Assembly (NCBI RefSeq): GCF_045037415.1
Contig: NZ_CP173438.1
DNA length: 64,000 bases
Origin: Escherichia coli
Lineage (GTDB): Bacteria; Pseudomonadota; Gammaproteobacteria; Enterobacterales; Enterobacteriaceae
Strand: one strand, 5' to 3'
Shown: piece after piece, positions 3,214-22,569 of the stretch
Position numbering within the stretch: the stretch's first letter is position 1
Layout of the letters: every line of letters starts with the position of its first letter
Program-made: the position numbers and the translations under genes
The notes under the pieces: model-generated
Told to the model about the DNA's origin: nothing
What the model saw: only the letters and a program-made list of their open reading frames with translations
Databases searched by the model: none

Positions 3214-3655
3214 GGTAGGCGCAGCAAACGTCGCATCAGGCATTGATGTCGGATGCGGCGTAAACGCCTTATCCGACCTACAAAAATCACGCCAAATCAG
3301 GCTATTGCGCTGTCTGACGTAGGCCTGATAAGACACGTCAGCATCGCATCAGACATTGATGCCGGATGCGGCGTAAACGCCTTATCCGACCTACAAAAAT
3401 CACGCCAAATCAGGCTATTGCGCTGTCTGGCGTAGGCCTGATAAGACGCGGCAAGCGTCGCATCAGGCGTTGATGTCGGATGCGGCGTAAACGCCTTATC
3501 CGACCTACAAAAATCACGCCAAATCAGGCTATTGCGCTGTCTGGCGTAGGCCTGATAAGACGCGTTAAGCGTCGCATCAGGCGTTGATGTCGGATGCGGC
3601 GTAAACGCCTTATCCGACCTACAAAAATCACGCTACATCAGGCTATTACTCAGTC
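3214..3655. repeat. Tandem array of four ~114-bp REP/BIME-type palindromic units
   Basis: Unit beginning gtaggcctgataagacgcg..cgcatcaggc..gatgtcggatgcggcgtaaacgccttatccgacctac recurs at 3319, 3432 and 3546 with few substitutions, after a partial first copy. Confidence 0.85.
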
Positions 3656-10297: not shown

Positions 10298-12125
<1,828 letters not shown>

Positions 12126-14089: not shown

Positions 14090-14215
14090 AATTGTCGGAT
14101 GCGCTCCGACCTACATCTGGCAACGGCTGTAGGTCGGATAAGATGCGCCAGCATCGCATCCGACAACAAGCGCCGGATGCGGCGTGAATGCCTTATCCGG
14201 CCTACATTCGGCAAG
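14090..14215. repeat. REP palindromic elements downstream of acs
   Basis: gtcggatgcgctccgacctac, ctgtaggtcggataag and gccggatgcggcgtgaatgccttatccggcctac motifs of the REP family. Confidence 0.7.
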
Positions 14216-16254: not shown

Positions 16255-16292
16255 TCTCTCCCCTTCCCCGGTCGCTTGATCGGGGAATTTCT

Positions 16293-16982
16293 TCAGAACA
16301 TCATCCTGGCCACCAGCGGCGAAACCAATACCATCAATACACCTGAAAGCATCATGACCAGGCTTGCAACTACGCCTTCTTGTTGACCCAGTTCATACGA
16401 CCGCGCAGTCCCGGCACCATGAGATGCCGCGCCGAATCCAGCACCTTTCGCCATCCCTTCGCGAATAGAGAGACGTAAAAACAACACGTCGCCAATCGCC
16501 ATGCCAAACACACCGGTGACCACCACAAACAGCGCCACCAGATCAGGCTGTCCGCCGAGCGACTGGCTCGCTGCCAAAGCAAATGGCGTAGTGACCGAAC
16601 GCACCGCCAGGCTACGCTGGATCTCATCTGGCAGGGTAAACAATCGCGCCAGCCACACTGAGCTGGTCACTGCCACCACCGTTGCCGTCAGTACGCCTGC
16701 CGTCAACGACATCCAGTGACGCTTAATGATCGCCCGATTGTCATACACTGGTACCGCAAAGGCGATGGTGGCCGGACCTAATAGCCATAGTAACCAGTGC
16801 GCTTCGCCAATATAGTTTTGCCAGGAAATATTGCCAAAAACCAGCAGCATAACCAGTAGCGTAGGCGTCAGCACCAGAGGCATCAATGGCAATTTACGAA
16901 AGCGGCGATAAAGGCGTTTGTTAAGAAAATAGATAACTAGCGTAATTGCCAGACAGAGCATACTTAGCTGAAAATTAGCCAC
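16293..16982 (-). CDS. LrgB/CidB-family membrane protein
   Basis: 229-aa polytopic ORF with LrgB-like composition; 8-bp overlap with the upstream LrgA-like gene. Confidence 0.75.
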   Translation of the reverse strand: MANFQLSMLCLAITLVIYFLNKRLYRRFRKLPLMPLVLTPTLLVMLLVFGNISWQNYIGEAHWLLWLLGPATIAFAVPVYDNRAIIKRHWMSLTAGVLTATVVAVTSSVWLARLFTLPDEIQRSLAVRSVTTPFALAASQSLGGQPDLVALFVVVTGVFGMAIGDVLFLRLSIREGMAKGAGFGAASHGAGTARSYELGQQEGVVASLVMMLSGVLMVLVSPLVARMMF

Positions 16983-17385
16983 GGTTTAACCTGCGCATTT
17001 CATAGCGATAGACTTTTTCCACTACCCAGGCAGTCGTGCCCAGCACCATCACCGTACTCAGCGCGATCACAGCAAAAATACGCCAGCCATCCACCAGTAA
17101 TAGTTGTGCATAGTTCACCACAGCCACCACGGCAGGGACAAAAAACAGCAACATTTCGGCCAATAGCCAACGCGCCCCGGCTCGAACCCATTGCAGAGGA
17201 AGAATGCGACAAACAATCAGCGCCAGCATCAGGATCATCCCCACCAGGTTGGCAGGCAGCGGCAAATGCAGCCAGGAGACGAGATACTGCGCAAAAATAA
17301 ATAAACCTGCATACAGCACAACCTGAAAAAATACCTGGATAGATTGCACTACGGCAGGGGTAATGCGGCGAAGCGCCACGGGCAT
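16975..17385 (-). CDS. LrgA/CidA-family holin-like membrane protein
   Basis: 136-aa four-TM ORF, the usual size and partner arrangement of LrgA/CidA. Confidence 0.75.
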   Translation of the reverse strand: MPVALRRITPAVVQSIQVFFQVVLYAGLFIFAQYLVSWLHLPLPANLVGMILMLALIVCRILPLQWVRAGARWLLAEMLLFFVPAVVAVVNYAQLLLVDGWRIFAVIALSTVMVLGTTAWVVEKVYRYEMRRLNRG

Positions 17386-17488
17386 GAGAGGATATCCTGA
17401 AAATAAAACAGAATGGTAAGTATAGAGAGCGCTCGCCCCTGACTGAAATGAATTAAAATCATTGCAGGTATAGTCAAAGGGAATAGTT

Positions 17489-18373
17489 ATGGATATCAGA
17501 ACGCTGCGTTATTTTGTCGAAGTCGTGCGCCAGCAAAGCTTCACCCGCGCAGCGGAGAAGTTGTTTGTCACCCAACCAACTATCAGCAAGATGCTGAAGA
17601 ATCTCGAAGATGAGCTGAACTGTATATTGTTGATCCGCGATGGTCGTCGGCTGCTTCTCACTGATACTGGTCGCGTCGTATTTGAGCGCGGGCTGGCTTT
17701 ACTGGCTGAGTTTCGGCAACTGGAAGCTGAGCTTAGCGATATCAATCAGCTTAAAACCGGCGTTTTGCGGCTGGGAATCCCGCCGATGGTTGGGATGTTG
17801 ATGGCCGGGCCGATTGGCCTTTTTCGCCAGCGTTACCCCGGCGTAGAATTGAAAATTTCGGAGTTTGGTGGTCTGACGGTACAACAAGCGGTGATGAACG
17901 GTGAACTGGATATGGCACTGACAGCCCTGCCAGTAGAAGAAAGCGGCCTGACAACGTTATCGCTGTTTAGTCATCCACTATGTGTACTGACGCCACATTC
18001 AGGTAAATGGCTTGAATGTGATGCCGTCTCACCGGAGACATTGGCGGAACATCCTCTACTTATCTATAACGAAGATTTTGCCTTAAGTAAGCAATTGATG
18101 AAGTTATTCGATGAACATGGCGTTAAGCCGAGAATTGCAGTTCGCAGCGGGCAATGGGATTTTCTCGCCGCGATGGTTCAGGCCGGTGTCGGAATAGCCA
18201 TATTGCCGGAACCCATTTGCCAGCGATTAGATAAAAACACCTTAAAATGGCTACCGCTGGAAAGCGAACTAAGCTGGAAATTAGGAATGATTTGGCGTGA
18301 GGGCGTTTACCTTTCCCACTCTGCCCACGCGTGGCTGAGCTGTTGTGAAGGATACTGGTTAACGCCAGAGTAA
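17489..18373 (+). CDS. LysR-family transcriptional regulator
   Basis: N-terminal HTH MDIRTLRYFVEVVRQQSFTRAAEKLFVTQPTISKMLKNLEDEL; 294 aa; divergent from the lrgAB-like pair. Confidence 0.88.
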   Translation: MDIRTLRYFVEVVRQQSFTRAAEKLFVTQPTISKMLKNLEDELNCILLIRDGRRLLLTDTGRVVFERGLALLAEFRQLEAELSDINQLKTGVLRLGIPPMVGMLMAGPIGLFRQRYPGVELKISEFGGLTVQQAVMNGELDMALTALPVEESGLTTLSLFSHPLCVLTPHSGKWLECDAVSPETLAEHPLLIYNEDFALSKQLMKLFDEHGVKPRIAVRSGQWDFLAAMVQAGVGIAILPEPICQRLDKNTLKWLPLESELSWKLGMIWREGVYLSHSAHAWLSCCEGYWLTPE

Positions 18374-18408
18374 GTCGGGTTGGCGGGCTCGCCCGCCAAC
18401 CATGCAGA

Positions 18409-21558: not shown

Positions 21559-21966
21559 AAGAAAACATCCCCTGAGAGTTTAATTTTCGTCAAGATGCGT
21601 GGCGGACAATCCCCTGCCAGCGAAACGTTATCTTCCTGCTCCAGGTTTGCGACAATTTGCTGCGTCGCAAAAAAAGCAAACGTTTAGCTCCGCGCATACA
21701 AAACGGGTGGTAAAAAAAGCAAACGATTATCCGGCGATCATAGCGGCTTTTTCAACCGAAGTTTGCTGCTTTTTTCTCTTTTATTGTCTTGACGATGAAA
21801 AACCAGGCAATTGATGCGCAAACGTTATCGTCGATGCGCAAGATTGCAGCGTTATCGAGCCGTATACCGTTCAGGATTGCGATAAAAAATCGTCTGAGAT
21901 GACAAAAATATTGCGGCTAAAAAGTGTACTTTTACACTGGCGAAGAAACGCCGGTAACATACAATT

Positions 21967-22110
21967 AAAGCATCAACACCAACCGGAACCTCCACCACGT
22001 GCTCGAATGAGGTGTGTTGACGTCGGGGGAAACCCTCCTGTGTACCAGCGGGATAGAGAGAAAGACAAAGACCGGAAAACAAACTAAAGCGCCCTTGTGG
22101 CGCTTTAGTT
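21967..22110 (+). ncRNA. ryjA: Candidate small RNA (position and size consistent with RyjA)
   Basis: Sigma-70-like promoter TTACAC-17bp-TAACAT at 21932-21960, then ~140 nt ending in a hairpin aaagcgcc-cttgt-ggcgcttt plus T-run at 22083-22110; no coding signal. Confidence 0.4.
22083..22110 (+). terminator. Rho-independent terminator hairpin at the soxR 3' end (probably bidirectional)
   Basis: 8-bp GC-rich stem aaagcgcc/ggcgcttt, 5-nt loop, followed by agttttgtt. Confidence 0.5.
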
Positions 22111-22569
22111 TTGTTCATCTTCCAGTAAGCGTGCGCCGGTACCTTCTTCTCCTAAGCGGTCGCCCGGGTTACGCAACGGGCAATCACTGCGCGAAAGGCA
22201 GCCACAACCAATACATCCATCCAGTTCGTCACGCAGCGCCACTAAGGTATGAATGCGCCGATCCAACTCTTCTCGCCATTGGGACGAAAGCTGTTTCCAC
22301 TCTTTCGCACTTAACGTATGCCCTTCTGGCAACACGCCAAACGCTTCACGAATGGTTGCGAGCGGAATGCCAATACGCTGAGCAATTTTGATAATTGCGA
22401 CATATCGCAACACATCACGTTTATATCGCCGCTGATTGCCGCTATTACGGATACTGGTAATCAACCCTTTGCTTTCATAGAAATGCAGCGCCGATACCGC
22501 CACACCGCTGCGTTTCGCCACTTCGCCGGGTGTTAGCAGCGCTTTAATGCGGGGTAATTTCTTTTCCAT
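22105..22569 (-). CDS. soxR: Redox-sensitive MerR-family activator SoxR
   Basis: 154-aa ORF with MerR HTH and C-terminal [2Fe-2S] cluster motif [12 protein letters not shown]. Confidence 0.96.

Follow-up and report, generated by a model that had tools for sequence, protein, structure and literature searches.

A CidR-like regulator divergent from an LrgA/LrgB-family membrane pair in the actP–yjcE interval of Escherichia coli

The 64,000-nucleotide stretch of Escherichia coli contig NZ_CP173438.1 analyzed here (hereafter the window) carries, at positions 16255–18408 between actP and yjcE, a three-gene cluster in which a LysR-type regulator gene is transcribed divergently from two genes for LrgA-like and LrgB-like membrane proteins (hereafter lrgA and lrgB). 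This cluster belongs to a family that is already known, as is its regulatory layout, but is itself uncharacterized. It probably constitutes a self-contained regulator-plus-transporter unit of the Cid/Lrg type, in which a regulator responding to an overflow acid would activate a CidAB-like carboxylate transporter. The role of Cid/Lrg proteins, as holins or as transporters, is still debated and has been studied almost exclusively in Gram-positive bacteria. The present cluster adds a Gram-negative orthologue group, conserved in Salmonella, Citrobacter, Enterobacter and uropathogenic E. coli lineages, whose regulator is clear, whose binding sites can be predicted and whose position next to the acetate-switch genes is constant.

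Gene layout and protein families

The gene order of the window is nrf-acs-yjcH-actP-[cluster]-yjcE-ghxP-soxRS-pdeC, and the cluster is composed of the following elements:

16293..16982, minus strand: LrgB/CidB-family membrane protein gene, 229 amino acids, GTG start (open reading frame (ORF) call, family profiles)
16975..17385, minus strand: LrgA/CidA-family small membrane protein gene, 136 amino acids (ORF call, family profiles)
17386..17488: divergent control region of 103 bp with four invariant blocks (76 distinct orthologous sequences)
17489..18373, plus strand: LysR-type transcriptional regulator gene, 294 amino acids, closest curated family CidR (ORF call, NCBIfam)

The CidR/cidAB-like arrangement described in an earlier, sequence-only reading of this DNA was recovered with the same ORF coordinates: the pair overlaps by 8 bp (GTGGCTAA), diverges from the regulator gene, and the regulator has CidR as its best curated match. 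Identical proteins and genes are annotated by RefSeq in strains ATCC 25922 and CFT073.

Comparison of the regulator with NCBIfam models gave CidR (E-value 2.5e-85, 286.2 bits), 129 bits ahead of the next family, CynR (157 bits), with a score below the CidR equivalog cut-off (286.2 versus 415 bits). Residues 1–257 align with BenM and other solved LysR-type regulators, which indicates a full-length LysR architecture, and HTH_1 (PF00126) and LysR_substrate (PF03466) domains are on record for its orthologues. Regulators that are 70%, 48% and 46% identical are each still divergent from an LrgA–LrgB pair; at 42% identity or less, the contexts of the homologues differ. One 42%-identical homologue (L095:129-2774) is divergent from an acetyl-CoA hydrolase/transferase gene, with no LrgAB pair there, which is another acetate-related context for this LysR branch.

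The LrgA-like protein matches Pfam PF03788 over model positions 3–94 of 94 (E-value 9.1e-26). It displays about four hydrophobic helices, with hydrophobic segments across residues 11–123, and its size fits that of the family (about 120–150 amino acids). Its best-scoring NCBIfam model is NF002460, the CidA/LrgA holin-like subfamily (E-value 8e-23, 80.7 bits, below the cut-off of 112), and it also falls below the equivalog cut-offs of NF002494 (YohJ-type, 54.3 versus 124 bits) and NF003155 (LrgA, 47.2 versus 136 bits). For the LrgB-like protein, the PF04172 match is precomputed for an identical protein, and TIGR00659 is matched over positions 5–224 of 226 (E-value 4.6e-54) at 183.3 bits, below the cut-off of 249.7; the YohK-type model (139.9 versus 267 bits) and the LrgB model (130.3 versus 264 bits) are likewise below theirs. 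Among the family matches, the LrgA and LrgB equivalog models score weakest. The possibility that the membrane proteins belong to an unrelated family, which the sequence-only reading had named as fatal to its proposal, is contradicted by the PF03788, PF04172 and TIGR00659 matches. On these profile matches, the family assignments of all three proteins are firm, and the proteins are to be regarded as family members and not as orthologues of characterized proteins.

In K-12, the closest comparison is YohJK, to which the LrgB-like and LrgA-like proteins are 35% (YohK) and 34% (YohJ) identical. YohJK belongs to the same two families and has the same overlapping two-gene layout, but lies at the dusC–cdd locus under the control of YieP, with no LysR gene next to it. 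The two pairs are paralogues and not orthologues. A 12-sequence alignment of the LrgB-like protein with YohK and distant homologues contains 40 invariant columns, including S129, T132, P133, A135, H188, G191, T192 and A193. None of the solved structures has a sequence related to that of the LrgB-like protein, and the AlphaFold2 model built from this alignment (mean predicted local distance difference test score of 57.6) was too poor for use.

The divergent control region

Alignment of 76 distinct orthologous intergenic sequences revealed that most positions of the control region vary freely, while four blocks are invariant or nearly so. The elements identified are:

17419–17428: invariant block AGTATAGnGA (76-sequence alignment)
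17419..17424, minus strand: inferred −10 hexamer of the lrgA promoter, TATACT (conservation within block AGTATAGnGA)
17445–17462: invariant block GAAATGAATTAAAnTCAT (76-sequence alignment)
17448..17462: site 1, ATGAATTAAAATCAT, dyad ATGA-N7-TCAT with T-N11-A, inferred regulator-binding site (conservation)
17470–17474: invariant block ATAGT (76-sequence alignment)
17470..17484: site 2, ATAGTCAAAGGGAAT, T-N11-A with AT...AT ends, predicted (third and fourth invariant blocks)
17480–17485: invariant block GGAATA (76-sequence alignment)

The search for a T-N11-A box in 17386–17488 that the sequence-only reading had proposed thus yielded a dyad-symmetric box, site 1, which has the T-N11-A form described for LysR-type regulators, as in the BenM site ATAC-N7-GTAT. 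The T-N11-A pattern is too common to carry weight, so that the evidence lies in invariance across genera and not in the match itself; ATGA-N7-TCAT occurs three times in the window versus 1.2 expected. Across the sampled genera, site 1 is invariant except for the central base at 17458 (A or C) and a T at 17460 in one sequence, and the box is also found in three modules with distant regulators (L090, L091 and L093).

Site 2, centered 22 bp from site 1, overlaps the ribosome-binding region of the regulator gene. Two observations bear on its nature. First, its equivalent in L091, whose regulator is 46% identical, is a perfect dyad, ATGCCA-N3-TGGCAT, with the 22-bp spacing kept. Secondly, Escherichia sp. 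ESNIH1 (L036) and a related metagenome-assembled genome (L037) carry a tandem duplication, in 2–3 copies, of a segment of about 16 bp containing GGAATA. This duplication sits just upstream of the regulator start codon and moves the Shine-Dalgarno sequence away from site 2, which nevertheless holds its position with the 22-bp site spacing retained. This argues that site 2 is not merely a Shine-Dalgarno element.

A scan for consensus sigma-70 promoters found none in the control region. This result fits an activator-dependent promoter, and the −10 assignment is therefore one of conservation only: the corresponding position reads TATAAT, TATACT or TACAGT in the distant modules, and the distance from the hexamer to site 1 is a constant 23–24 nt, distant modules included. 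Both sites and the −10 element recur at equal spacings in modules whose regulators are only 46–70% identical. The hexamer would place the lrgA transcription start near 17412 on the minus strand; relative to this predicted start, site 1 is centered at about −43 and site 2 at about −65, which is the usual layout of an activation site and a recognition site.

Ancestry of the cluster and its replacement in K-12

In K-12 MG1655, the gene between yjcE and actP is yjcF, as the sequence-only reading had stated, and the cluster is accordingly not normal K-12 content. The yjcF gene encodes a pentapeptide-repeat protein that many RefSeq records now name espX5 ('T3SS effector pentapeptide repeat protein'). 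Comparison of the two slots (K-12 L002:5784-7076 versus window 16289–18408) revealed that homology extends past the actP stop codon to the end of its terminator hairpin, is lost at about 16288 and returns precisely with the yjcE stop codon (18409). The interval 16255–18408 is thus the replaced segment, and the cluster and yjcF replace each other cleanly in this slot; the alignment of the window with K-12 shows no sign of a mobile element there. A hairpin lies at either end:

16264..16287, plus strand: actP terminator, a G+C-rich hairpin TTCCCCGGTCGCTTGATCGGGGAA followed by a T-run (terminator scan; K-12 alignment)
18378..18401: stable hairpin GGTTGGCGGGC..GCCCGCCAACC, likely terminator (−22.2 kcal/mol, z −3.6)

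The first separates the convergent actP and lrgB genes and is the last stretch in common with K-12 on the actP side. The second is placed between the convergent regulator gene and yjcE.

The sequence-only reading had implied that the cluster is unusual content of the actP–yjcE junction; synteny reverses this view. The closest LrgB homologues outside E. coli, 84–90% identical, are found in Salmonella, Citrobacter, Kluyvera, Kosakonia, Enterobacter, Klebsiella and Raoultella, and the full order ghxP-yjcE-LysR-lrgA-lrgB-actP-yjcH-acs is observed in Salmonella, Kosakonia and Enterobacter hormaechei. When one genome per species was scanned, 80 loci emerged from about 25 named genera and from Escherichia whittamii. 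Nearly all of them have the order yjcE-LysR-lrgA-lrgB-actP, with Salmonella, Citrobacter, Enterobacter, Kluyvera, Kosakonia and E. whittamii among the carriers. E. albertii, E. fergusonii, E. marmotae and E. ruysiae were not among the loci of this one-per-species scan, a weak negative since E. coli records are likewise missing there.

Recent horizontal acquisition from another genus was considered and rejected on the basis of the ordinary G+C content of the cluster and of silent-site divergence matching that of its flanks. Third-codon-position identity with E. whittamii is 86–88% for the cluster and 76–91% for the flanks, and with Salmonella and Citrobacter 52–64% and 56–68%, respectively. Together with the synteny across genera, these values indicate that the cluster has been inherited vertically and is ancestral at the yjcE–actP position in Enterobacteriaceae. 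On this comparative evidence, yjcF in K-12 is a derived replacement, and K-12 is the odd one out.

The yjcE–actP slot seems prone to cargo change and may be an exchange hotspot. Between lrgB and actP, Kosakonia has an inserted oxidoreductase gene and one further lineage two YfaZ genes. Phytobacter massiliensis (L080:2017-3624) and Intestinirhabdus alba (L014:5040-6000) have retained the LysR gene beside yjcE and lost lrgAB. In place of lrgAB, the former carries genes for a 136-amino-acid membrane protein and a 315-amino-acid secreted protein, and the latter a gene for a small protein with an HHIDHDH motif, HNH-nuclease-like by eye.

Within E. coli, the cluster is present in 1037 of 5426 complete genomes, including CFT073, ST131, NU14 and ATCC 25922, which we take to be phylogroup B2 strains; it has been kept by one large set of E. 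coli genomes, apparently phylogroup B2. The yjcF gene, sometimes interrupted by IS1, is found in 4118 of these genomes, and neither query matched in the remaining 271. Two genomes with partial matches proved to be deletion variants, rare third states of the slot. In NZ_CP062851.1 (L088), IS1 lies between yjcE and actP and yjcF is gone, an IS1-associated deletion. In NZ_CP072686.1 (strain FP4, L089), the 5′ part of lrgB, lrgA, the regulator gene and yjcE are lost, and the truncated lrgB adjoins ghxP. In two metagenome-assembled genomes labelled Oscillospiraceae and Citrobacter sp. (L007 and L008), short contigs match the E. coli cluster at 100% identity; they are probably misbinned E. coli contigs.

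The absence of the cluster from about 81% of complete E. coli genomes, the deletion variants, and the genera that have lost lrgAB yet keep the regulator could suggest an evolutionary leftover that no longer has a function and is disappearing from E. coli, having already gone from most lineages. We consider this highly improbable. Of 1038 E. coli records, 1034 carry all three ORFs intact and with at least 99% identity, and the ORF lengths equal those of orthologues in other genera. First- and second-codon-position identity is far above that of the third position, a mark of purifying selection: protein identity with Salmonella is 85–90%, far above the third-position identity of about 52%. The non-coding boxes are also invariant, and a gene of the island has been reported as expressed in patient urine (see below).

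Proposed transport function and competing explanations

In the carboxylate-transport reading, which we favor, the regulator would bind sites 1 and 2 as a tetramer. Its signal would be a small overflow acid, most likely acetate, to which CidR and YwbI respond, or a metabolite closely linked to it. On sensing this acid, the regulator would activate a promoter ahead of lrgA with a presumably weak −35 element. It would also limit its own expression, as the position of the sites over its own upstream and leader region suggests. The lrgA/lrgB overlap points to translational coupling, by which both membrane proteins would be made together. These would then form a hetero-oligomeric complex carrying a small carboxylate (acetate, pyruvate or a related C2–C3 acid) through the inner membrane when the cell changes over between excreting acid and using it again, alongside the neighboring acs-yjcH-actP genes. 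Acetate or a closely linked overflow acid is the favored substrate.

This proposal draws on three groups of known systems. First, in the CidR–cidABC system of Staphylococcus aureus, a LysR-type regulator is likewise divergent from a CidA/LrgA-family gene followed by a CidB/LrgB-family gene, and CidR mediates the induction of cidABC by acetic acid. That system differs by its cidC pyruvate oxidase gene, whereas the present cluster has a Gram-negative host and acs-yjcH-actP as neighbors. Secondly, Bacillus subtilis has, by description, a CidR-type regulator, YwbI, beside a cidAB-like pair, ywbHG, whose induction by acetate requires YwbI. These genes lie five genes from ywcBA, a DUF485/SSF pair that is the counterpart of yjcH-actP, so that linkage to yjcH/actP homologues recurs in a distant phylum; the actP homologue is five genes off there and adjacent here, and the phenotype reported is biofilm timing. 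Thirdly, B. subtilis PftAB and the LrgAB proteins of Streptococcus mutans and S. aureus are also two-gene LrgA/LrgB-family membrane pairs. PftAB is a hetero-oligomeric facilitated pyruvate transporter, and LrgAB promotes pyruvate uptake in S. aureus and S. mutans. These pairs are controlled by the LytST/LytSR two-component system, in contrast to the LysR-type regulator here, and no two-component (LytS/LytT) genes are present in the locus.

The overflow-metabolite function put forward in the sequence-only reading thus gains from the linkage to acs-yjcH-actP across dozens of genera and from the ywbHG/ywcBA case in B. subtilis, the function itself staying a prediction. Its suggestion of pyruvate or other small-acid transport is retained as a small-acid role, with pyruvate import weakened. 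A Salmonella SL1344 btsT cstA double mutant does not grow on 60 mM pyruvate, which makes efficient pyruvate import by the cluster under those conditions less likely, provided that SL1344 carries it; S. enterica serovars do carry the cluster.

Besides this mutant result, several points weigh against the carboxylate-transport reading. None of the three proteins reaches an NCBIfam equivalog cut-off, so that function is not transferable as orthology. There is no cidC or pyruvate oxidase gene at the locus or at orthologous loci, lrgB running straight into the convergent actP. No further copy of the 17-nt box was found in the 64-kb window, for example at acs, which leaves a regulatory link to acs-yjcH-actP unsupported. 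The lrgA start used to place the sites is inferred and not mapped. Most E. coli live without the cluster, which is therefore dispensable. Finally, no published experiment on the cluster in any enterobacterium was found, and the CFT073 gene tags gave one expression-table entry.

A unit of the same architecture might instead move and sense a hydroxy-acid, namely glycolate/glycerate, lactate or 3-hydroxypropionate. The single paralogous pair of E. coli, YohJK, has been annotated, and also reported, as a putative transporter or export system for 3-hydroxypropionate, the neighboring ActP is annotated as an acetate/glycolate symporter, and the Salmonella btsT cstA result argues against pyruvate import. 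The plant LrgA–LrgB fusion PLGG1 carries glycolate/glycerate. However, the pair is only 34–35% identical to YohJK, the closest curated family of the regulator is the acetate-linked CidR, and no glycolate or 3-hydroxypropionate catabolic genes are adjacent at this locus or at the Salmonella, Kosakonia and Enterobacter loci. We judge a hydroxy-acid substrate unlikely.

Less probable still is a holin/antiholin-like pair that would control murein hydrolases, regulated lysis and the release of extracellular DNA, triggered by the regulator under acid stress. In published work, S. aureus CidA and LrgA behaved like holins, supporting lysis by an endolysin and causing liposomes to leak, and ywbHG overexpression shifted B. 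subtilis biofilm timing; the NCBIfam family names also read 'holin-like' and 'autolysis modulator'. Yet none of the loci examined has a murein hydrolase or endolysin gene within the cluster or next to it, and the conserved neighbors of the cluster are transport and metabolic genes. The multi-pass LrgB-like protein has loop motifs that are invariant in the 12-sequence alignment, which includes the putative 3-hydroxypropionate transport protein YohK, and the paper describing the holin behavior in S. aureus itself concludes that these proteins act in transporting by-products of carbohydrate metabolism.

A broader extension of the carboxylate-transport reading would make the cluster a functional part of the acetate switch: an acetate- or overflow-sensing valve ancestral to Enterobacteriaceae, lost in most E. 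coli with the arrival of yjcF/espX5, whose retention in the extraintestinal-pathogenic phylogroup B2 would alter acetate and pyruvate handling and fitness in urine or in the host. We hold this extension to be doubtful. Whatever the substrate, the slot provides a natural presence/absence contrast within one species; if the carboxylate hypothesis is wrong, the locus stays an annotated, uncharacterized strain-variable transporter.

Published traces and neighboring elements

The cluster has probably gone unstudied because it is absent from K-12. The traces that exist come from CFT073, in which c5065 lies between acs and nrfA. Counting tags from c5065, and since the island genes are the only K-12-absent genes nearby, c5059–c5061 would correspond to the three genes, a mapping that is inferred. 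The c5060 gene is listed under 'hypothetical protein' and is missing from MG1655. Its expression was recorded in patient urine for 6 urinary tract infection isolates, and hybridization detected it in all 10 uropathogenic isolates and in none of 3 fecal ones. A CFT073 study reported c5065 as an ORF of 65 amino acids upstream of nrfA, bound by NsrR, and called it CFT073-specific. In the acs–nrfA intergenic region (window 11735–12125), K-12 annotates only the tiny ytcB.

Beyond ghxP, a glutathione S-transferase gene lies between soxR and ghxP in Salmonella, Kosakonia and Enterobacter (L003, L004 and L006). E. coli has no glutathione S-transferase gene there (window about 21560–22100, and K-12) and carries instead the small RNA sraL/ryjA at 21972–22112 (Rfam, 153 bits). 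Rfam gave no non-coding RNA match inside the cluster. Elsewhere in the window, it identified naRNA4 elements of the REP (repetitive extragenic palindromic) type, three in a row at 3322–3619 and one in the acs–yjcH intergenic region at 14132–14202.

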